Source: Escherichia phage vB_EcoP_P64441
DNA length: 42,960 bases
Sequence record: PQ847473.1
Reading direction: 5' to 3' (one strand)
The notes beneath the pieces were generated by a model, which had not been told where the DNA came from, did no database searches, and was given only the letters and a program-made list of their open reading frames with translations. Within the stretch, counting starts at the first letter, position 1, and the number at the start of each line of letters is the position of its first letter. A program made the position numbers and the translations under genes. Shown here one piece after another: positions 12,188-33,648 of this stretch.

Positions 12188-12249
12188 GTTGGTTGCTACC
12201 CCTTACTATTACCTGTGGTTTCTGAGATACCTGTAGTACATTTAATGAA

Positions 12250-14700
12250 CTAACAGAAAAAGAATCTGCTACCCAGTACCTGCTTAAGGTCCAAAGAACC
12301 TTTAGCTGGTAACTCCAGCCCTTCTAAGTCTGCCCCACAAGCTACTGCCGCATCAGTAATCTCCTGAAGTACGTCATGCTCTGTGTACAGACGTAGGAAC
12401 TGTTCGCGGATAGCAGAATGCATTTCATCTACATCGCAAGCGTGAGTAGCTACCGAGTCGTGGATAGGCATAATGTCTCCTGAGAATGCAGAGATAGTCA
12501 TACCTAAGTGAGTAGCGTCTAAGCTGTGCACCCAATTAGGGGAGATGCCTGACTTAGCCTTACGCTTGTTGTTTACATTGTAGTTACGGTTGTACACCAG
12601 CAGGTGTGTCAGGTTCATGCTCTTAACAGAAACCTTAGTCTCTTCTGATTCAGTGTATCGGTTGATAACCAGCCCGCCTAACGGAGTCTTCCATTGAAGG
12701 TGGTTGGCTGCTGGTACACGATAGCACAGTGACTGTACATATTTCATCGCCTCAGTAGCTGCTGGGTTAGCGTCCTCTACTGCTGCCTTCATGCGAGTAC
12801 TCAGATATCCTGCCAGCTTGAACAGGCTGTACTCTTCCGTCCCTTCGTAACCTTCTTCCTGTGCAGACTGAAGGATGTACTCTGAGCAAGAGCGCACAGT
12901 AGCCGAGTATACGTGTGTCATGCATGGACGTTTAGCCATGCTGCGGGTAATCTCGTTCCCACGCCAGTAGTTAGCCTGCACTACGAAGTCAGGATTGTCC
13001 AGGTCCATGATGACCTTAGCATCAGTACGGCGCTTAACGTCCATGTACATATCTGCTTTCTCTTCGTTACCCTCCCAGAACAGGTTAACTAAACGACCAC
13101 CTACTGAGTCACGCAGTAACGCGGCGAAGTGCTGCTGCCCCGAGTTGGTTGCATCCATAGCCACCGGAATGCGTGATTCGTATGTTTCCGGGCTGCCCGA
13201 GTCAATAGCAGCAACGAGGTCGATGCAGGCTGCCAGAAAACACCACGGGCTGTCTGCACTCCTGAAAGCTTCTGCATTAAACGGATTTGATGCGACAAGT
13301 CGAATCTGCTCGATATTAGCATCAGTCCAAGCTGCACGCTTTTCGAATAAGGCTTTATCATAACCATAGCAGGTAGCGACGTGTACCTTGAGCCAAAACA
13401 AACCCCGCTCTCCCAGAGGCTTTGCCCGACTGAAGGAGAGCAAAGCTTTCTGCATGTCAGGACCCTGAGGGTGCAGGCTTGATTTGAAGTACAGGCGGTA
13501 GCGCCAGTCAACGCAGGTTGGGAAGTACAGTTCTTTCTCATCCTTAAACTCCTCGCAGAGTTGAACCAGTGTCACCATGGAACGCAACTTACTTACGCGA
13601 GTACGCTCTTGGATGTACCAGTTACGCATATTCATCTTCCAAGTCTGGAAGTCATCCATCTGGCGCTCGGTGTAATCCTCTTTAGGTACACCGTCCAGAT
13701 ACCACTCAGGTTTAGGGGCTGGGTAGGAACTAGGCATACCTGTCGTTACACCTTCACGACGTGCTTGGTTAAGCAGATTAAGTACTTCCTTGTTGATAAC
13801 GTAAGGCACTTCCTGCGCCTTGTTCAGCATATCCTTCAGTCCCTCTGCCTGCTTGAATGCCTCTGCTACTTCACGTTTCATTGCACGAGTAATCTGGTGA
13901 TTATGGTAAGTACCGCGCTTGCAAGTGCTGCTTAGAAGGTATCCACCTGAGAACATGTCTACATGCTTCTGCGGAGGTACAATCATTGGGGGTTTAATCT
14001 CTACGGTATCTGCGTCCAGTACTAAATCGCCTAGTACCTCAGCTAATACTTCAGACGGTGCCAAGTATTGTAGCTGGGTTGCGTCAGTGCTCTTATCCCA
14101 CGTGAACAGGCCTGTTTCCCACACAGGTTGTAGGATTAATTTACCTACTGCTACACACTGAGAAGCGGACCAAGGTTCATGCCCGTAGTGCACATTCTCT
14201 GCTGAAGCACGTAAGGTCTTCATAATATGCGACTGACTTGTAGTGTTACGTTCTTTCAAGTACTCAAATACACGATTCATATATGCGGGTGCAACTACTT
14301 CTAACTGTATGCTAAGGACCTCGGCTTGAACCTGGCGCCCTAGGCTAGCCAGCAAAGCTTGTGCAGATGTACGGCTTCCACCAGACTCTTTAAGGAAGAG
14401 GGAGTCAATGCATTTAGTGAGTGCCATTACAGCGAGAACGTCAGTAGGGACCAGACGGATAATGCTGCGGTACTTACCGCCGACGCCTGCGGTCTTCTGT
14501 GCCTTCATCTCGTCAATGCCTTGAGCAACAGTATCATAGGCTGCTGCAATCATGCGACTTACCTTAGGCAGGCTGCTTAAGTTACCTGCTGCCAGTGCCT
14601 TCTGCACCAGCTCACGCGACTTGTTCAGGCTACGAGTGCGGTAATCTTTCTCTAGCTGTAACTGGCGTTCTACTTTCTGTTCTAATGTTTCGTGTTGCAT
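12250..14700 (-). CDS. T7-like single-subunit DNA-dependent RNA polymerase
   Basis: 816 aa. 'MDATNSGQQHFAALLRDSVGGRLVNL' matches the T7 RNAP motif A region '[25 protein letters not shown]'. 'IHDSVATHA' matches motif C (HDSFG). The C-terminus 'LGSRFFFC' parallels T7 'ESDFAFA'. Confidence 0.9.
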   Translation of the reverse strand: MQHETLEQKVERQLQLEKDYRTRSLNKSRELVQKALAAGNLSSLPKVSRMIAAAYDTVAQGIDEMKAQKTAGVGGKYRSIIRLVPTDVLAVMALTKCIDSLFLKESGGSRTSAQALLASLGRQVQAEVLSIQLEVVAPAYMNRVFEYLKERNTTSQSHIMKTLRASAENVHYGHEPWSASQCVAVGKLILQPVWETGLFTWDKSTDATQLQYLAPSEVLAEVLGDLVLDADTVEIKPPMIVPPQKHVDMFSGGYLLSSTCKRGTYHNHQITRAMKREVAEAFKQAEGLKDMLNKAQEVPYVINKEVLNLLNQARREGVTTGMPSSYPAPKPEWYLDGVPKEDYTERQMDDFQTWKMNMRNWYIQERTRVSKLRSMVTLVQLCEEFKDEKELYFPTCVDWRYRLYFKSSLHPQGPDMQKALLSFSRAKPLGERGLFWLKVHVATCYGYDKALFEKRAAWTDANIEQIRLVASNPFNAEAFRSADSPWCFLAACIDLVAAIDSGSPETYESRIPVAMDATNSGQQHFAALLRDSVGGRLVNLFWEGNEEKADMYMDVKRRTDAKVIMDLDNPDFVVQANYWRGNEITRSMAKRPCMTHVYSATVRSCSEYILQSAQEEGYEGTEEYSLFKLAGYLSTRMKAAVEDANPAATEAMKYVQSLCYRVPAANHLQWKTPLGGLVINRYTESEETKVSVKSMNLTHLLVYNRNYNVNNKRKAKSGISPNWVHSLDATHLGMTISAFSGDIMPIHDSVATHACDVDEMHSAIREQFLRLYTEHDVLQEITDAAVACGADLEGLELPAKGSLDLKQVLGSRFFFC

Positions 14701-20489: not shown

Positions 20490-21071
20490 TTATTCGCTTA
20501 CATTAACCCAATCAGGACGCTCACCCTTACCGCAGTAAAAGTCAATCAGGTCTAGTAAGCGTGGATAATACTTCAGCGAACTCTTACCGTCCATTTCCGC
20601 AACCTGGCGCTTACTGAAGCTGCGCCACTCTGCTGCCGTATGCTGCTGACATCCTACACGCACTATGTCATTACAGATACTAATGAAGTACGTTTCTCCG
20701 TATATAATGACAGTCTTGGCGCCGCGCAGGTCAGCGCGGCGCAGGTTAGCGCTGCGCAGGTCAGCTTCGCGCAGGTCAGCGTCGCGCAGGTCAGTGCCGG
20801 TCAGGTCAGCGCCGCGCAGGTCAGCGCCGCGCAGGTCAACGTCGCGCAGGTCAGCGCCGCTCAGGTCAGCGCCGCGCAGGTCAGTGCCGGTCAGGTCAGC
20901 GCCGCGCAGGTTAGCGTAGCGCAGGTTAGCGCCGCGCAGGTCAACGTCGCGCAGGTTAGCACTGCTCAGGTCAGCGTCGCGCAGGTCAGCGTCGCGCAGG
21001 TTAGCGCGGCGCAGGTCAACGCTGTGCAGTCTTCCTAACTTATACTTTTCGCAGATTTCTTGATAGTTCAT
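20490..21071 (-). CDS. Pentapeptide-repeat protein 2 (about 22 A(D/N)LxG/R-type repeats plus a roughly 75-aa non-repeat C-terminal domain)
   Basis: '[56 protein letters not shown]...' is a continuous pentapeptide repeat as in Qnr/MfpA DNA mimics. Encoded by a 15-bp tandem DNA repeat. The N-terminus is paralogous to 27205..27741. Confidence 0.8.
20718..21030. repeat. 15-bp tandem repeat array (coding; pentapeptide repeats)
   Basis: Units such as 'gcgcaggtcagcgcc' / 'gcgcaggttagcgcc' repeated about 20 times. Confidence 0.9.
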
Positions 21072-21111
21072 AGTTAACCTATATGTAAAGAATTATTTAT
21101 TACTGGACAAA

Positions 21112-21347: not shown

Positions 21348-21461
21348 ATTGAATCCTCTTAAGTCTGCAACCTCACCGCGAAGTTGCTTAACTAAGAGAC
21401 TTCCTTAGCGAGCCTTATTTCTCTTAGACTCTTATCTACATCGCACTGTATTACCTGTGCA

Positions 21462-21512
21462 CGGGAGGAACCGCTCAAGCTCGTACTATCTACCCAGAGC
21501 TTTCAGGAGGGC
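21462..21512 (-). promoter_or_regulatory. Conserved leader element copy 1 (6-bp stem AAGCTC/GAGCTT, 14-nt loop with invariant GGGTAGATA on the transcribed strand)
   Basis: Flanks 'gggaggaaccgctc' and 'caggagggca' are conserved with the copies at 28797-28850 and 30337-30391. The stem sequence differs between copies but pairing is kept. Confidence 0.55.
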
Positions 21513-21579
21513 ACCGGGATTAAAGTCCCCGGTGACTATCAATCCGCTTTGCTATCTGCATCTCGTCTTGATGAAATGA

Positions 21580-21619: not shown

Positions 21620-22807
21620 TTAAATTACCATCTCCCCTTTAAAGGACTTACCAATCTCACATTCAGCGGGAAACTTAACTTCAGACAGTATGCCAAAGTT
21701 AGGCCACAGCTGTAGCATCCTATCACGGGCTCCTTCCATAACGTTTTTGATGAGCTTACCCGCCTTACGGGCCGTCTCTTCGTCAGCACAATCTATGTAC
21801 AAACAGTCATGGACGGTAACCAGCAAACACCATTTACCCCCCATCCAATTGTCAGCTATACCAGCCCTCATAGCCATTCCGGTTGCAATAAGCATAAGCA
21901 GGGAACCTGATCCTTGAAACGGATAGTTAGCCATCTCTGTGGGCTTAAAGTCCATTACCTGCTTACCTTCGCGCCACACCGGCTTCTGACGGAAGCGGTA
22001 GCGAGTACCGCAAGGCGTAGTGAAGTAGCCCTCGCGATAGATACGCCAGCTGCCGTCATCTGCTTGTTCACGGCGTATAGGCTCCAGCAGCGCAGTACGG
22101 TTTACTTCAGCTGCAATGACATCCCTGTACTTAATAGACTCAGGGAATAGTGCCTCCTCGTTAGCTAAGAACTTCTCAGCGTCGGCTAAGCTAGCACCTG
22201 AGGCGAACGCCAGTCCTTTAGCGGATGCTCCATATTGTGCTGCGAAGCTGAAGGTTTTGATGGCTGTTCGCTTCTTCTTCCATCCTTTATGGTCCGGTGC
22301 ATCCAGGTTATGGCAAAGCTCGTAGACTTCTTCATAAGGCATACCTTCTTGGAATGCTAGACGATAGCAGTGCATATCCGTACCGGCTTCAAGCAAGCTC
22401 AGTAATTTCTTATCACCAGTGATTACACAGCCCATTACAACCTCCATAGCTGAGTAGTCACACTGTGCAATCATACCCTGCTCACCATAGCGGCTACGCA
22501 GAATCTGCTTAACCTTAGACTCACGCGGCAGCTGCTGCATGTTCGGGTTAGATGTTGACAGGCGTCCGGTAGTAGTTGAGCAGTGATTCGACCTGTGGTG
22601 AATGATGCCAGAACCATCTGCTGATGTAGGGATGACGTACGGCAGCATGCCCGTCACCTTACGCAGACTGCCATCCTTATTAGTCTCACGTACTTCATAG
22701 AAGCCGAGGTCCTTCTGGCGTGTAGTCATTTCTTTGTATGTTTTGAAGAAGTCTGAAGCTAACTTAGCCATCTTGTTCCATCCCAATAAAATAATGTGCA
22801 AGGTCAT
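21620..22807 (-). CDS. DNA polymerase (family A), polymerase-domain ORF
   Basis: 'GRLSTSNPNMQQLP' (pre-motif A), 'CDYSAMEVV' (motif A, DYSxxE), 'RTAIKTFSFAAQYGAS' (motif B), 'VTVHDCLYID' (motif C, HD). Overlaps the upstream exonuclease-domain ORF by 44 nt in the +1 frame. Confidence 0.8.
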   Translation of the reverse strand: MTLHIILLGWNKMAKLASDFFKTYKEMTTRQKDLGFYEVRETNKDGSLRKVTGMLPYVIPTSADGSGIIHHRSNHCSTTTGRLSTSNPNMQQLPRESKVKQILRSRYGEQGMIAQCDYSAMEVVMGCVITGDKKLLSLLEAGTDMHCYRLAFQEGMPYEEVYELCHNLDAPDHKGWKKKRTAIKTFSFAAQYGASAKGLAFASGASLADAEKFLANEEALFPESIKYRDVIAAEVNRTALLEPIRREQADDGSWRIYREGYFTTPCGTRYRFRQKPVWREGKQVMDFKPTEMANYPFQGSGSLLMLIATGMAMRAGIADNWMGGKWCLLVTVHDCLYIDCADEETARKAGKLIKNVMEGARDRMLQLWPNFGILSEVKFPAECEIGKSFKGEMVI

Positions 22808-23915
22808 TCATTGCGTCCATTCCTGTGCTGTACACAGGGCTACCATCCGCTAATGTTTGAGCACCTTTGTATTCACCGCGGTCTCCGTACTTCTCACGTA
22901 GAGACTGAGGTAGGTCCTGAATATTAACCAGCCCGTCGAAGCGGTACAGGCGTTCACCCCACTTCATAGCTTGCTCGTCAGTGTCTACTTTTATGAACTT
23001 AGGCATACCCTTATTACGCCCAGACTTATACACCCCGTCCTGTACTTCCTTCTTAATGTATTTAGGTGGGTCATAAGGAACCTTGCACTTGTACTTAACC
23101 GTGCCGCCATACACTAAAGCGGACATATGATAACCGCTATTCCATTTAAACTCGAAGCCCTCTGGCAATTCTGGCAAGAATGTCTGAAGTAACTCCCGCA
23201 GATTCCGAATAGCGTCCTCCTGCTCCTTCTGATTAGCTCTGGCTGTAGGCATATCAACGTACACGCCATTGAACTCACAGTATGCCAGAGCTGCGACTGC
23301 CTCCATCCTTTCCCAGACCATAGGCATCTGTCCACGTTCCGCAAATACTGCGCATTGCCCGTAGAAGCACAGCGCTGTGTTGACTATGTCACCGTTAGGC
23401 CCTGTTAAGTATTCATGTAGTAGCATAGGGTCAATGTCTGCTGTCAGAACCCCTTGCTGCCATAGTAGCTTAACGCCGTCGACTTTGTGTGACCCGCCAT
23501 ACTTAGGGGCAGTCTCATCTAGTGACGGGTAAAGATTCTGGAAGTCGCTGGCAATGTACTCGCCCTGCATAGTATCAAAGACTCGACCTCCTCGTCTAAG
23601 GAACGACTCGAACTGCTCACGGGCAAAGGTCAGCGCCCAGCTAATCTCGTACGCTGCGTTGTGCGCTACGATTAACCACGTATCATCCTGAATAGGTAGC
23701 CACTGCTTAGGGTCAGCTGCTAAGAAATCAGTTCGGGATTCATAGCGTACACTCTGCACCTCGCTGCACTGTACAGTCCCATCCGGCATAGTCCTATCGA
23801 TGCGGAAGCCTGATTCTACGATGTAGTTATCAGGGCAGTACGGAGTTGCGACCCCGCCGTAGTACGGATGATTTTGAGTTTCAATATCCCAAATTAGAAT
23901 GCTACTCATTTCCAA
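22764..23915 (-). CDS. DNA polymerase (family A), N-terminal 3'-5' exonuclease-domain ORF
   Basis: 'LIWDIETQ' is an Exo I (DxE) motif. Contiguous with the polymerase-domain ORF. The called start at 23915 is TTG; a likely ATG start lies at 23909 (MSSILIWDIET). Confidence 0.7.
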   Translation of the reverse strand: MEMSSILIWDIETQNHPYYGGVATPYCPDNYIVESGFRIDRTMPDGTVQCSEVQSVRYESRTDFLAADPKQWLPIQDDTWLIVAHNAAYEISWALTFAREQFESFLRRGGRVFDTMQGEYIASDFQNLYPSLDETAPKYGGSHKVDGVKLLWQQGVLTADIDPMLLHEYLTGPNGDIVNTALCFYGQCAVFAERGQMPMVWERMEAVAALAYCEFNGVYVDMPTARANQKEQEDAIRNLRELLQTFLPELPEGFEFKWNSGYHMSALVYGGTVKYKCKVPYDPPKYIKKEVQDGVYKSGRNKGMPKFIKVDTDEQAMKWGERLYRFDGLVNIQDLPQSLREKYGDRGEYKGAQTLADGSPVYSTGMDAMNDLAHYFIGMEQDG

Positions 23916-27204: not shown

Positions 27205-27741
27205 TTAGATACTAACCCAATCAGCGACGCGCAGGTCAGCGTCGCGCAGGTCAGTGCCGGTCAGGTCAGCGCCGCGCAGGTCAGCGCCGCGCAGGTTAGC
27301 GCCAATCAGGTTAGCGTCGCGCAGGTTAGCGCCGCTCAGGTCAGCGCCGCGCAGGTTAGCGCCGCGCAGGTTAGCGCCGTGCAGGTCAGCGCTGCGCAGG
27401 TCAGCGCCGCTCAGGTCAGCGCCGCTCAGGTCAGCGATGTTCAGGTCAGCGTAGCGCAGGTCAGCGCCGCGCAGGTCAGCGCCGCTCAGGTCAGCGCCGC
27501 GCAGGTTAGCGCCAATCAGGTTAGCGTCGCGCAGCTTAGCGTCGCTCAGGTCAGCGACGCGCAGGTCAGCGTCGCTCAGGTCAGCGTAGCGCAGGTCAGC
27601 GCCGCTCAGGTCAGCGCCGCGCAGGTCAGCGTCGAGCAGGTTAGCGCGGCGCAGGTCAGCGCCGCACAGGTCAGCGCCGCACAGGTCAGCGCCTTCCAAG
27701 GATTCCAACTTGTATTTATTACAGATATTGTCATAAGTCAT
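27205..27741 (-). CDS. Pentapeptide-repeat protein 1 (about 30 contiguous pentapeptide repeats)
   Basis: '[44 protein letters not shown]...' runs almost to the C-terminus. Likely start is the ATG at 27741 (MTYDNICNKYKL) with a GAGG ribosome-binding site; the track ORF extends to 27792. Confidence 0.8.
   Translation of the reverse strand: MTYDNICNKYKLESLEGADLCGADLCGADLRRANLLDADLRGADLSGADLRYADLSDADLRVADLSDAKLRDANLIGANLRGADLSGADLRGADLRYADLNIADLSGADLSGADLRSADLHGANLRGANLRGADLSGANLRDANLIGANLRGADLRGADLTGTDLRDADLRVADWVSI
27225..27695. repeat. 15-bp tandem repeat array (coding; pentapeptide repeats)
   Basis: About 30 units of 'gcgcaggtcagcgcc'-type repeats. Near-identical at the DNA level to the array at 20718-21030. 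Confidence 0.9.
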
Positions 27742-27751
27742 ATTAGTAACC

Positions 27752-27991
27752 TCAGTTAATTTTAATATTAAAACGTGCACAATACCCTTCAAGGGTCATC
27801 CCTACTTTAGCTGCTTTAAGACTGTAAGCTAACTTAAGAGCTTCCTTAGCGTCATGCTCACGAGCCAGCTTCTCAATCGTTACTTCATCATTACGCATCA
27901 GAATCATTTCGGGGTTCCGGTTAATCATTTCTGCATCTCCAGTTTGAAAAGGGCCATTGCAGCGTTCAGGCGAAACGCGGGTTGCATTCAT
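27752..27991 (-). CDS. Hypothetical protein (79 aa)
   Basis: ORF only. Confidence 0.3.
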   Translation of the reverse strand: MNATRVSPERCNGPFQTGDAEMINRNPEMILMRNDEVTIEKLAREHDAKEALKLAYSLKAAKVGMTLEGYCARFNIKIN

Positions 27992-28702: not shown

Positions 28703-28796
28703 CTTAACTCCTTAGTGGTTTTATTAAAGCCCTCCGCAGAAGGCTTTGTAAAACTACTTTAGTTTCTTTCATCTCAGACCCACTGAATTATCCGTG

Positions 28797-28850
28797 GACG
28801 GGAGGAACCGCTCGAGCCTGTTCTATCTACCCTAGGCTCTCAGAAGGGCA
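28797..28850 (-). promoter_or_regulatory. Conserved leader element copy 2 (stem GAGCCT/AGGCTC, loop with GGGTAGATA)
   Basis: Plus strand 'gacgggaggaaccgctcGAGCCTgttctatctaccctAGGCTCtcagaagggca'. Confidence 0.55.
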
Positions 28851-28890
28851 ATCACTTAGCGTTGTTGATTAACGTCCTGCTATGAATCCA

Positions 28891-30272: not shown

Positions 30273-30336
30273 CTTAGCGAAGCTCTTGTCTCTTCAATCT
30301 AGTGAGCTTCTCATCTATTCCCTCTGTATAATCCGA

Positions 30337-30391
30337 GGACGCTAGGTAACGCTCAGAACCTGTTTATCTACCCCGGTTCTTCAGAAGGGCA
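30337..30391 (-). promoter_or_regulatory. Conserved leader element copy 3 (stem AGAACC/GGTTCT, loop with GGGTAGATA)
   Basis: Plus strand 'ggacgctaggtaacgctcAGAACCtgtttatctaccccGGTTCTtcagaagggca'. Confidence 0.55.
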
Positions 30392-30430
30392 ACCAGTTAT
30401 CGTATCTGGCTAACGTCTTGCTATGTACTG

Positions 30431-30459
30431 ACTATACTTCTACAAAACAGGTAAGTCAA
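30431..30459 (-). promoter_or_regulatory. Sigma70-like promoter P3 (TTGACT-17 nt-TATAGT) reading the minus strand
   Basis: Minus strand 'TTGACTtacctgttttgtagaagTATAGT'. Confidence 0.5.
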
Positions 30460-30465
30460 CAACTA

Positions 30466-30612
30466 TTTAAACTTTCTTCTATCTGCTTTAAACCTTATAG
30501 CATACTCCTTAGGGTATCGTTCTTTAAGCTGTAGCCTATAATAGTGAAACCCTTCCATATCATCCTGATTTAAACATTCATACATTCGGTATACTAAGTA
30601 ACTTGCTGTCAT
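30466..30612 (-). CDS. Micro-ORF (49 aa), paralogue of 30634..30747
   Basis: Hand translation 'MTASYLVYRMYECLNQDDMEGFHYYRLQLKERYPKEYAIRFKADRRKFK', with a GAGGA ribosome-binding site. Shares the MT..YL..M.EC...DM.G(F/Y)FHY pattern with the upstream micro-ORF. Confidence 0.4.
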
Positions 30613-30633
30613 GGTTTAGTCCTCATTGTTTTA

Positions 30634-30747
30634 ATTACCTTTAAACGCATACATCTCACACAGCTTGCACCAGTAATGAAAGTACCCGTTCATATCACCT
30701 ATATCAGCGCATACCTCTACCATCTTCTCTAAATACTCTCGAGTCAT
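30634..30747 (-). CDS. Micro-ORF (38 aa), paralogue of 30466..30612
   Basis: Hand translation 'MTREYLEKMVEVCADIGDMNGYFHYWCKLCEMYAFKGN'. Its 5' leader ('caacacatagtaataggagataattgagac') is near-identical to the leader of the 244-aa gene at 31539-31572. Confidence 0.4.
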
Positions 30748-30803
30748 GTCTCAATTATCTCCTATTACTATGTGTTGTGCGGAGGCTCTCGCCGAACGCA
30801 CCC

Positions 30804-31538
30804 TTACCTACGCTGTTGCTGCATCCATTCGTACAACTCACCCTGCGACCACTTAACCTGACGCGCTGTAGCGCCCTTAGTAGTCTCTTTAATCTCTTCA
30901 TACTCTACTACAGCATCCTTACTATGTATATACGTAGTACTATCATTACTTAGTATACTGCGCTCATACTCCTTCTTACTAAGCTCCGGCTTAGACTCAT
31001 GCTTCAGCCACTCATTATGTCTAGCATCAAGCATTGCATCTATCTCTAGTGCTAAAGCATCCAACGGCTCAGCGTCTATCCAATCCCTGTCCTCGCACCA
31101 CGTAGGGTTAAGATAGAGGCTATCATCCATATACCGCTTATCCTTCCTAGCGTTGTACTGCTTGTAATGCGCTGTAGCCTCATTAACTGCGCTCAGTACA
31201 GTACCAGCACGCTGCATAGTCTTAAGCCCTGCATAGCCTCTACTACGTCCTTCTAAGTAATCGTTCATGAGATTGTAATGCTTCAACTGGAAGTCATCAC
31301 TGTATGCCCAAGCCAGCACTACATCCTGCATCTTCAACGTAGCATCAGCTACAGCTATTATATTACGCCTAGCTACAGGCTTCTTATCGCTCCTAGCAGG
31401 CTTACTAGTACCTAAAGCAGCGTATGCCTCATCTTTAGTTAAGTACCAGTCATCACCTACTACATACACATTACAGCGCTTCCCATCTATAGTCTTCTTA
31501 CTGCGCTTCATCAATGTACCCGTCTCTTGCTTAGTCAT
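30804..31538 (-). CDS. Hypothetical early protein (244 aa); first gene after the putative left end
   Basis: ORF with an AGGGGA ribosome-binding site. No recognisable motif. Confidence 0.5.
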   Translation of the reverse strand: MTKQETGTLMKRSKKTIDGKRCNVYVVGDDWYLTKDEAYAALGTSKPARSDKKPVARRNIIAVADATLKMQDVVLAWAYSDDFQLKHYNLMNDYLEGRSRGYAGLKTMQRAGTVLSAVNEATAHYKQYNARKDKRYMDDSLYLNPTWCEDRDWIDAEPLDALALEIDAMLDARHNEWLKHESKPELSKKEYERSILSNDSTTYIHSKDAVVEYEEIKETTKGATARQVKWSQGELYEWMQQQRR

Positions 31539-31539
31539 A

Positions 31540-32085
31540 ATGTCTCAATTATCCCCTACTATTATGTGTTGGTAGTGTATTGGCTGTGACTCACCTTATT
31601 GTTAAAAGCTGTACAACTAATACACCAACTAATACAACTACCCGCAGCATAACACAGCACTAACCCTGCGTCAACCATTGCACAGCCTGGAAGCAAAAGA
31701 GGTAAGCCTAACGATACACCTGCACTACCTCTGACTCTCTACTGCGGATAAAATAGGCAAGAGCAGAGAGGACAGCATCTCCCTGTGCTCCACAAAATAG
31801 GCAAGACTAACCTCTCCCGCACCCTCAACAGAGAGCGCAGAGACAGCCAGCCAAGCCAGGTCCTGCCAGAGATACGCAGAGGCACCCCCTACCCTCCCTC
31901 CAGAAGATTCCCAGAGGCCGCCCCTACGGGGGGAACAGCGCGTTGGTCGGGTGAAGGAGGCCCTCGCGTGAGTATAATAAATTCAAGGTGCCTGTTTACA
32001 CTTGCAATCCTGAGCTATGTATGCTATGCCAAAGGATTCCCCAGAGATTCCAGGGGATTCCATTAGCAATTTCTCTAGCTATTCC
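31540..32085. other. Non-coding region, candidate genome-end / terminal-repeat region (collapsed in this circular assembly)
   Basis: About 550 bp with no credible ORF, lying between the last late gene and the first early gene. Contains short direct repeats ('aaaataggcaaga' twice, 'actaatacaNc' twice) and G/C-rich tracts ('ccctccctcc', 'cccctacgggggg'). Confidence 0.35.
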
Positions 32086-33648
32086 TTAGACAATACGAAT
32101 TTCACCACCATGCGGAGAGATAGGACTAGCTAAGTACGGACTACGCACTACTACGTACCCGTTCTCATCAGAAGAGATAACTGGAGGCTTACTAACGTCG
32201 TTAGTACTGAGCGCTACAGCTGTACCACCTGCTACGTGCCCTAACCAGAACCATGTACCCAGGTTGTGGTCAATCTTCAGTGCAACATACAGGAGCTGCG
32301 TATCCGTGTACTCAATGTTAGTGCTCCATACTGCGCGGCTATCAGCACCACTGGTTTCAGTACTAAGAGCAGCGCCTACAGTGAACTGTGCCTGACTACC
32401 GTTAGACATCTTCCCGTTCACCTTCTGAGGATGGTACTTGCTGGTCTGTACTGCCTTACCTACCAGTGCATCCAGCCCTACGTTCGGGTCGTACACTGTG
32501 TAAGTCTGCTGTACAGTACTGGCTTGCTTAGCGTTAGCTAGTGCTAAGCGCTGGTTACCTGCGATGATTCCGGTAGGGAAGTGCAAATCCGAGAGGTTGT
32601 AGTTACTGCCTTCGATAATATCCCACCATACAGCACCACCACCAATGCGGTTGTTAGGCTGCATGATAACGTTCGTGTTCTCATTGAACCCACCGAACAT
32701 CTTTAGACTGCTTCCGTACACCCAGCAGTTATCCATAGTGATAGCGTTGGCACTGGTAGCGATACAACCATAAGCACCAGCGGCATTGCTCTCGATATAG
32801 CAGGAGTCGAACTTAATGTTGTAAGCGCCTTGGATAAACACACCATGTGTCTGGAAGCTCTCGATACCGCAGTTAAACAGCGTCAGTGCTTCTACAGCAG
32901 ATACGAACTTAATACCTACGTCGCATACACCTGTATGCACAGAGATAAGCGGTTGGATATTCACTTCATCACGGAACTCATAACGATGCAGGCCTACTGT
33001 GTAGCTGCCGTTGCACTGCAAGTTCTTGAACGAGCTGTAGAAGCAACGTTCTGTATAAACCAGCTGCTGCACATCCACTGCTACAATGTCCGTAACCTCA
33101 CACCCGAATACATGGTTACGCAGGCGCATACCTTGATAGAAGGACATGAGCGTAGCGTTTCGGATACAGGTACCAACAGTAAGGAACTCCTCCTGACCGC
33201 TACCAAATACTGATACAAGTCTCCCTGAGGTATTGATATAACCAGTCTCAAGGAAGATGTTAGTACTGTCTGCGGTATCTGTGCGCCCTACAATGCGAGC
33301 ACCCTGCATATCCAGAGTAGTAATGCGGCGACGAGGTGTAGTAACTTCAATAGCACTAGGGGACTCTGAGGCCAGCACATACACTTTATTAGCAATATAG
33401 TAGCTCTTCCAGCCTGTAGCTTTAACTGTACCACCACCACGGCGATAGCACTCTACAAGCGCAGCCTGAAAGGCAGCCGAGTCATCTGTAGCGTTAGGGT
33501 TGCGTGTACCATCTGGAAGGAGGGCATCACCTTTAGCCCCGAAGTCGTCTACATAAACGTCACGACCTAGTGCTTCGGATACGCTACCTCCGTTATAGCT
33601 TACCCCTTCTGAATCTACACGTACTTCAATATTAGCGACTAATGTCAT
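32086..33648 (-). CDS. Tailspike 2 / putative capsule depolymerase (pectate-lyase-like beta-helix)
   Basis: 'VYVDDFGAKGDALLPDGTRNPNATDDSAAFQAALVEC' is the N-terminal signature of pectate_lyase_3-type beta-helix tailspikes. 520 aa with no T7 gp17-like N-terminal anchor. Confidence 0.65.
   Translation of the reverse strand: MTLVANIEVRVDSEGVSYNGGSVSEALGRDVYVDDFGAKGDALLPDGTRNPNATDDSAAFQAALVECYRRGGGTVKATGWKSYYIANKVYVLASESPSAIEVTTPRRRITTLDMQGARIVGRTDTADSTNIFLETGYINTSGRLVSVFGSGQEEFLTVGTCIRNATLMSFYQGMRLRNHVFGCEVTDIVAVDVQQLVYTERCFYSSFKNLQCNGSYTVGLHRYEFRDEVNIQPLISVHTGVCDVGIKFVSAVEALTLFNCGIESFQTHGVFIQGAYNIKFDSCYIESNAAGAYGCIATSANAITMDNCWVYGSSLKMFGGFNENTNVIMQPNNRIGGGAVWWDIIEGSNYNLSDLHFPTGIIAGNQRLALANAKQASTVQQTYTVYDPNVGLDALVGKAVQTSKYHPQKVNGKMSNGSQAQFTVGAALSTETSGADSRAVWSTNIEYTDTQLLYVALKIDHNLGTWFWLGHVAGGTAVALSTNDVSKPPVISSDENGYVVVRSPYLASPISPHGGEIRIV

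Follow-up and report, generated by a model that had tools for sequence, protein, structure and literature searches.

Two adjacent micro-ORFs, encoding proteins of 38 and 49 amino acids (ORF38 and ORF49), are located on the minus strand of the window, by which we mean the whole stretch of 42,960 nucleotides that was analyzed. Both are found where the earlier note had placed such a pair. When read along the minus strand, a non-coding stretch is followed by a gene for a 244-amino-acid protein (gene 1), then by ORF38, ORF49, a sigma-70-type promoter, and further small early genes. A short leader sequence is present ahead of both gene 1 and ORF38, and a structured RNA element lies behind the promoter. 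ORF38 has a Shine-Dalgarno box (AGGAG) 11 nt ahead of its ATG. The gene 1 product matched no Pfam or PHROG family. The positions of these features are collected in Table 1.

Table 1. Features at the micro-ORF locus, in minus-strand order
Feature	Position	Strand	Description	Basis
Non-coding stretch	32085-31540		~545 nt, ahead of gene 1	
Leader copy 1	31542..31571	-	CAACACATAATAGTAGGGGATAATTGAGAC + ATT, ahead of the 244-aa gene 1	
Gene 1	30804..31538	-	244-aa protein; upstream neighbor of ORF38; homologues open phiKDA1 and Entb_48	
Leader copy 2	30748..30777	-	CAACACATAGTAATAGGAGATAATTGAGAC, directly ahead of the ORF38 ATG	
ORF38	30631..30747	-	38-aa micro-protein MTREYLEKMVEVCADIGDMNGYFHYWCKLCEMYAFKGN; gene 2 of the putative left-end early operon	ORF list
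Shine-Dalgarno of ORF49	30620..30624	-	GAGGA, 7 nt ahead of the ATG	Read from sequence
ORF49	30463..30612	-	49-aa paralogue MTASYLVYRMYECLNQDDMEGFHYYRLQLKERYPKEYAIRFKADRRKFK; gene 3	ORF list
Sigma-70-type promoter	30431..30459	-	TTGACT-17-TATAGT, 4 nt past the ORF49 stop	Consensus scan, 10/12 matches
Structured RNA	30320..30425	-	Repeat family D2, behind the promoter	Alignment, covariation

The genome is ~42.8 kb long, complete, and circularly assembled, and all of its genes are on the minus strand. It encodes a single-subunit RNA polymerase (RNAP) at 12250..14700, directly ahead of the structural genes, as well as a T7-type portal and terminase, and is thus the genome of a T7-type phage (Autographiviridae). 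By RNAP, the closest deposited phages are Escherichia phage ECO104 4-5-2 and Salmonella phage S.Kent 1-2-1 (90%), followed by PAS7 (85%) and phiKDA1 (72%). The classified phages nearest by RNAP belong to Autographiviridae, subfamily Slopekvirinae, and the phage is of the KP34/phiKDA1 type. Window positions 1-127 and 42834-42960 are identical over 127 nt, which resembles an assembler's circular overlap rather than a true terminal repeat. Judged by synteny with phiKDA1, the physical genome ends probably lie within the non-coding stretch upstream of gene 1.

The same synteny places ORF38 and ORF49 as genes 2 and 3 at the early end of the genome. In phiKDA1, the homologue of the 244-amino-acid gene (start at 512) heads the rightward genes, behind the left direct repeat of 267 bp, and by this correspondence and the genome map ORF38 and ORF49 lie just past the terminal-repeat and promoter region. 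Sigma-70-like sites were found upstream of gene 1 in a consensus scan, but at chance frequency. In T7-type phages, the DNA of the leftmost operon enters the cell first and is transcribed by the host RNA polymerase. ORF38 and ORF49 would therefore be made within the first minutes of infection, an early expression that we infer from the synteny together with T7-group biology.

Several observations speak to whether such short frames are genes. Public gene callers have called both ORFs in related metagenome contigs. The ORF49 protein occurs in identical form on 15 public contigs, and contig L005 encodes a homologue of 46 amino acids that is 80% identical. ORF49 and this homologue differ by 11 synonymous codon changes, of which five follow one another across FHYYRL, and by nine replacements that are mostly conservative. 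For this pair, the dN/dS ratio (Nei-Gojobori) is 0.12 in the coding frame, whereas the other two frames give 1.19 and 1.71; the alternative frames of ORF49 also carry 4 and 7 stops. Likewise, ORF38 gives in-frame values of 0.10 against its homologue from L017 (P0009) and 0.22 against that from L018 (P0010), versus 0.88-1.87 in the other frames, and comparing the L017 and L018 homologues with each other yields 0.27 in frame. Across all comparisons, which represent a small diversity of three to four informative lineages, dN/dS is 0.10-0.27 in frame and 0.88-2.61 in alternative frames. Substitutions at third codon positions predominate in these comparisons. Open frames are kept in all family members, with lengths of 38-51 amino acids. 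The earlier note had tied its claim to the conservation of the reading frames in related genomes, and on checking both frames proved to be kept under purifying selection.

The edges of homology in related contigs are also informative. In L011, both the gene upstream of the ORF38-ORF49 pair and the leader differ from those in the window, and the ATG of ORF38 is exactly where homology starts. L005 carries an ORF49-type gene only, again behind a different upstream gene and leader, with homology beginning exactly at its ATG. These edges are module boundaries at start codons, as would be the case if the ORFs behaved as gene cassettes. The predicted RNA fold of the micro-ORF region is not unusual (z = -0.28), and the region matched no Rfam family at the gathering threshold or with E values up to 1.

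By these sequence comparisons, ORF38 and ORF49 are genuine protein-coding genes under purifying selection. That they are instead chance open frames in non-coding DNA, as might be supposed from their shortness and from the lack of a tblastn match in any deposited phage genome, is scarcely credible, since purifying selection is frame-specific, lengths are conserved, Shine-Dalgarno sites are present, gene callers have found the ORFs independently, and module boundaries coincide with the ATGs. A related idea is that they serve as upstream or leader-peptide ORFs, for which the act of translation (through coupling or attenuation) matters rather than the peptide. Their very small size, the regulatory-looking early region, and the tight spacing of 18 nt between the ORF38 stop and the ORF49 start would fit such a role. 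However, the amino acid sequence itself is selected (dN/dS 0.1-0.27), a confident fold is predicted for both micro-proteins, and ORF49 is followed by a promoter rather than by a coupled gene, all of which make this role highly improbable.

Two allelic differences in ORF38 were noted. Codon 30 (30658-30660) specifies Cys (TGT) in the window and Arg (CGT) in all other sampled alleles. In L008 (2867..3004), a 1-nt deletion in an AAA run replaces the last two residues of ORF38 with a nine-residue extension, giving a 45-amino-acid protein whose gene overlaps the ORF49 start. Either the extreme C terminus of ORF38 is dispensable or the L008 assembly is wrong.

The two micro-proteins are similar to each other beyond chance. 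A BLASTP comparison reports 12 identities over 34 positions (35%) with a pairwise E value of 2e-5, and their Smith-Waterman score of 54 was reached by none of 20,000 shuffles (shuffle maximum 50). The motif that the earlier note had quoted as shared is broadly correct, except that aligning GYFHYW with G-FHYY requires a one-residue indel. At the nucleotide level, identity is 48% and synonymous sites are saturated (pS 0.92), so the pair is either old or was assembled by recombination. Sequence similarity of this kind marks ORF38 and ORF49 as true paralogues of ancient divergence, not as a recent tandem copy. The proposal of paralogous micro-genes, arranged in tandem within the earliest region of a T7-type phage, is thus supported by this similarity and by the phiKDA1 synteny.

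The family is very narrow and was previously unnamed. An exhaustive HMMER search of 1.84 billion representatives recovered four small proteins only (P0002, P0003, P0009, and P0010), and a word-indexed search of 5.8 billion proteins found three clusters only. All family members occupy the same syntenic slot of related KP34/phiKDA1-like Autographiviridae contigs, in one or two copies. Residues M1, T2, Y5, L6, C13, D18, Y25, L29, and Y33 are invariant in the family. P0009 (41 amino acids, L017) and P0010 (46 amino acids, L018) are single copies that look intermediate between the window paralogues. A further hit, P0011 (2111 amino acids), was rejected because its E value of 1e-4 is summed over ten KYYYHWLKGF-type repeats and reflects a repeat-driven match to a surface-protein repeat rather than homology.

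Searches for more distant relatives were negative. A profile search revealed no further family copies in the window, phiKDA1, KP34, or other loci, and a tblastn search with both micro-proteins through 50,697 phage records returned chance-level matches only (E of 5 or more). Neither micro-protein had a tblastn match in the closest deposited phages by RNAP (90% identity). No Pfam match was obtained for the four family members with E values up to 10, PHROGs gave no match, and the best hit of a profile search against PDB sequences (E 0.051) was judged to be chance. Scans of IMG/VR and JGI metagenomes with degenerate patterns likewise yielded no family relatives.

The slot behind gene 1 is filled differently in related phages. 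It holds an 88-amino-acid gene (gp04) in phiKDA1, a 62-amino-acid gene in Entb_48, and a 58-amino-acid family in PAS7 and L004. These small early genes of Slopekvirinae thus share their location with ORF38 and ORF49, whereas their proteins are unrelated in sequence. No HMM match to the micro-ORF family was found for phiKDA1 gp04 or the Entb_48 protein. The PAS7/L004 protein, which contains a HADMxEFH segment, was considered as a distant relative and was ruled out by an hhalign probability of 0.2%. The promoter that follows ORF49 is also found in two relatives without the micro-ORFs, PAS7 (92% conserved) and L004. The cassette therefore sits between two conserved non-coding elements. The micro-ORFs form an exchangeable accessory cassette whose 3′ boundary is marked by the promoter.

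This distribution also bears on whether the micro-proteins act on the phage's own gene 1 product, as a small subunit, chaperone, antidote, or regulator, instead of on a host target. The micro-ORFs are directly downstream of a gene of the 244-amino-acid family in the window, L006-L010, and L012-L018, and in L011 the upstream gene (184 amino acids) is a weak relative of the gene 1 N terminus. However, phiKDA1, Entb_48, and L004 have gene 1 homologues without any member of the micro-ORF family, and in L005 the ORF49-type gene follows a 198-amino-acid gene for which no similarity to gene 1 or to any other part of the window could be detected. A role as a gene 1 partner is less likely because gene 1 is found in genomes that lack the family, and family members in turn occur where there is no clear homologue of gene 1; we consider it unlikely overall.

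The leaders of gene 1 and ORF38 are nearly identical, as the earlier note had observed. The two copies form a 30-mer with three mismatches, for which zero occurrences are expected by chance, and the gene 1 copy is followed by an extra ATT before the ATG. Each consists of a core (TAGGRGATAATTGAGAC) and an upstream half rich in ACAC and ATA. The element is found exactly twice, once before gene 1 and once before gene 2, in the window, L006-L010, L012-L017, phiKDA1, and Entb_48, and in a slightly diverged form before both genes in L018. It precedes gene 2 even where that gene encodes the unrelated phiKDA1 or Entb_48 protein, and the leader of ORF49 is another sequence. Duplication of the micro-ORFs therefore does not account for the origin of the element. 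Of the "duplicated translation-initiation region" proposed earlier, the repeat is real, but it is not a by-product of the micro-ORF duplication. The leader is ~90% identical between the window and phiKDA1, versus an identity of only 48% for the gene 1 proteins.

An extra copy of the leader was found in phiKDA1 and in three other ~44-kb genomes from an IMG/VR scan, on the strand opposite to all genes. These copies are at 8066-8082 in phiKDA1 (L019/L022), 3468 in L023 (reverse-complement coordinates), 6260 in L024, and 8479 in L026. The antisense copy is located in the gap that separates the helicase gene from the following gene. Behind it comes a conserved stretch of 45 nt that has a hairpin but no ATG. 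There is no antisense copy in the window. On the mRNA strand, the phiKDA1-like antisense copy reads as the complement of the gene 1 and gene 2 leaders. It may thus serve either as an antisense promoter or, acting as an anti-leader, to switch off the translation of early genes.

These properties raise the question of whether the leader is, or overlaps, a promoter of the phage single-subunit RNAP or is another regulatory site at the DNA or RNA level. If it is a promoter, gene 1 and the ORF38-ORF49 pair would each be under their own phage-specific control element, and the micro-genes would also be made later in infection. Such a function is consistent with the conservation of the leader across genera, which exceeds that of the genes behind it, and with the antisense copies that lack an ATG. 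The KP34 RNAP promoters have been defined experimentally as T(A/G)ATGTTACAGGAGTA followed by GGA; one is at the left genome end (475-490), and another stops 3 nt short of the ATG of the gene that follows the RNAP gene (Lu et al. 2019, PMC6834552). The leader, in which A(G/A)TA is followed by GG(G/A)GA, matches these promoters in shape. It also resembles the strong KP34 promoters in its similar length, in the AGTA-to-GGA type of junction, and in its placement, with a copy at the left end of the genome and another that overlaps the region where ribosomes bind ahead of a gene. In sequence, the KP34 promoters differ, with no match within three mismatches save one at chance level.

Additional evidence comes from the region directly behind the RNAP gene, where a leader-like motif is present in both the window and phiKDA1. 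The conserved motif reads GAAACCACAGGTAATAGTAAGGGG in the window (intergenic region 12188-12249, minus strand) and GAAACCACACGTATAGAACAAGGGG in phiKDA1 (~21050-21098). In the window, it is a 12-of-16 look-alike of the leader, and its location corresponds to that of the verified KP34 S1 promoter. This motif is a candidate phage promoter. Furthermore, the phiKDA1 gp04 leader was picked as a candidate promoter (phiKDA1_3) in a study in which it was inactive with EM1 RNAP (Han et al., PMC9596486). That inactivity is weak evidence against promoter function because EM1 RNAP is a heterologous enzyme, with 71% identity to that of phiKDA1, and because the construct replaced everything downstream of the AATA segment.

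Other observations weigh against a promoter. The window has two strict copies of the leader only, both exactly at start codons, and this number rules out the leader as a general many-copy phage promoter there. EM1-like and KP34-like promoter sequences are not enriched in the window. The specificity of T7-type promoters comes from their upstream part, whereas the best-conserved half of the leader is the 3′ part that contains the Shine-Dalgarno sequence (TAGGRGATAATTGAGAC). Moreover, an AGGAG or GGGGA box located 11-14 nt ahead of the ATG is a workable ribosome-binding site. A promoter or other regulatory site is quite possible, although we lean slightly away from it; otherwise, the leader would be a conserved strong translation-initiation region.

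The RNA element behind the ORF49-proximal promoter is one of three copies in the window, the other two being at 28779-28884 and 21442-21547 on the minus strand. Each copy is just downstream of an early sigma-70-type promoter of the form TTGAC(A/T)-17-TATAGT/TAGAAT, and the element is also present in L003, L005, L008, L009, L011, L017, and L018. It spans ~110 nt and forms three hairpins. Over ten non-identical copies from the window and its relatives, hairpins P2 and P3 are 99.3% paired, and nine of their 15 pairs show compensatory changes. The observed pairing and covariation values were reached by none of 500 shuffles, and slid-register controls pair at 48% or less. Hairpin P1 also covaries, with six different helix sequences, and its pairing was derived from per-sequence folds and a manual stem table rather than from RNAalifold. 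RNAalifold had been applied to a MAFFT alignment in which the first hairpin was misaligned, and it therefore paired the 5′ part differently. The loop of P2 (GGGTAGATA) is invariant. No Rfam match was obtained for the element at the gathering threshold or with E values up to 1. A repeated 32-mer of KP34 was considered as its counterpart and was ruled out as an unrelated GC hairpin. The element could be a cis-acting component of early transcripts that functions in antitermination, processing, or stability.

We then turn to the proteins themselves. AlphaFold models predict helices at residues 3-16 and 19-37 for ORF38 (pLDDT 91.8) and at residues 3-15, 19-32, and 34-47 for ORF49 (pLDDT 87.9). Each micro-protein is thus confidently predicted to be a helical hairpin, to which ORF49 would add a basic C-terminal helix. 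As read from sequence, the net charges are -2 for ORF38 and +4 for ORF49, the tail of which is basic. Foldseek produced no significant match (E ~1 or worse; 0.88 at best) and nothing significant among viral structures. The best matches of the hairpin are TPR proteins with E values of 1.0-9.9, namely PilF, PilW, Sti1 (TPR2B), and BamD; the PilF match has a query-normalized TM score of 0.75 and 30% identity over 46 columns. These E values are high because the query is so short. TPR proteins are the top matches but with E values of ~1 or worse, and we therefore call the fold TPR-like and do not claim membership.

The likeness to a TPR repeat lies in the predicted helix A-turn-helix B hairpin of ~34 residues. 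In our reading, it extends to a pattern, GD-x-x-x-aromatic followed by Y-x-K-L-x-E-x-Y-P, that recalls the TPR consensus GDY..A...Y.KAL.L.P. In contrast to TPR proteins, which are tandem arrays of three or more repeats, the micro-proteins are single units of 38-51 amino acids, and no Pfam TPR model matches the family. A lone TPR-like hairpin is usually unstable by itself.

With modest confidence, we favor an explanation in which these paralogous hairpin genes, the second and third of the leftmost operon, form an accessory cassette and likely encode host-protein binders. ORF38 and ORF49 would be cytoplasmic proteins built on one TPR-like helix-turn-helix hairpin, with a core formed by the invariant residues Y5, L6, C13, D18, Y25, L29, and Y33 and with an aromatic-rich second helix. 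Their cassette would be bounded on the 5′ side by the ~30-nt leader and on the 3′ side by the sigma-70 promoter and structured RNA; in relatives, its slot holds a single copy, a pair of copies, or small genes that are unrelated. The most likely mode of action is that the conserved aromatic face of the hairpin binds a host protein stoichiometrically, which may serve host takeover or neutralize a strain-specific defense. The two diverged copies may address two targets, or they may pair together, as their charges would permit.

By analogy with other phages, a host-takeover or anti-defense role for ORF38 and ORF49 is plausible. Small early proteins of T7 include Gp0.4 (51 amino acids, an FtsZ inhibitor), Gp2 (64 amino acids, an RNAP inhibitor), Gp5.7, and Ocr, of which Gp0.4, Gp2, and Ocr bind host factors or defenses. 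ORF38 and ORF49 resemble the takeover proteins of the T7 group in that they are very small, non-essential-looking, encoded in the early host-transcribed region of an Autographiviridae genome, and variably present among related phages. They differ in that two paralogous copies are found here. The pair fits the class of small early host-binding phage proteins in several respects: its operon enters the cell first, the proteins are tiny and have a conserved aromatic face, their distribution is patchy and accessory, and the copy number varies. No homology of either micro-protein to characterized inhibitors was found in the 50,697 phage records, Pfam, PHROGs, or PDB sequences.

A more specific proposal, which we regard as possible if somewhat doubtful, is that the family represents a minimal, single-repeat TPR-like "hairpin inhibitor." The acidic 38-amino-acid and basic 49-amino-acid proteins would form a four-helix heterodimer, or each would dock on a host TPR-binding surface. 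Such complexes would, in the first minutes of infection, put out of action either a host takeover target or an anti-phage defense that is specific to certain strains. The leader on one side and the promoter and RNA on the other would serve as recombination handles, letting related phages swap cassettes.

It is well established that precise inhibitors of bacterial machinery, as well as anti-defense factors, can be found among small early phage proteins, yet most of these proteins are unannotated because they fall below ORF-length cut-offs. Given that the micro-ORFs are real, selected, and predicted with confidence to fold, they are reasonable candidates for a toxicity or interaction screen in Escherichia coli, an organism suggested by the K1-type endosialidase that the phage carries. 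Regardless, the result is an ordinary one, as it adds one more ORFan family to a mosaic early region, and ORF38 and ORF49 are an ordinary kind of phage accessory gene. As to how KP34/phiKDA1-like phages control their early genes, more general interest may attach to the flanking elements, namely the leader, which phiKDA1-like genomes also carry in antisense, and the covarying RNA.

Some further features of the genome were observed. Two receptor-binding proteins are encoded on the minus strand, namely a full endosialidase (K1 capsule depolymerase) tail fiber (37197..40445) and a second, beta-helix tailspike (32086..33648), which suggests dual host specificity in a KP34-type phage. Two mutually related minus-strand ORFs of 193 and 195 amino acids (20490..21071 and 27205..27792) consist largely of tandem repeats with a 15-nt period that encode pentapeptide repeats (repeat family D1, ~37 copies). 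The family-A DNA polymerase is apparently split between overlapping minus-strand ORFs of 383 and 395 amino acids (21620..22807 and 22764..23915), whereas phiKDA1 has a single gene for 794 amino acids; the split could be a frameshift, a sequencing error, or real. Finally, two short records labeled "Listeria phage" (OR846985.1 and OR848265.1) encode an RNAP that is 90% identical to that of this enterobacterial-type phage, and they are probably mislabeled or contaminant contigs.
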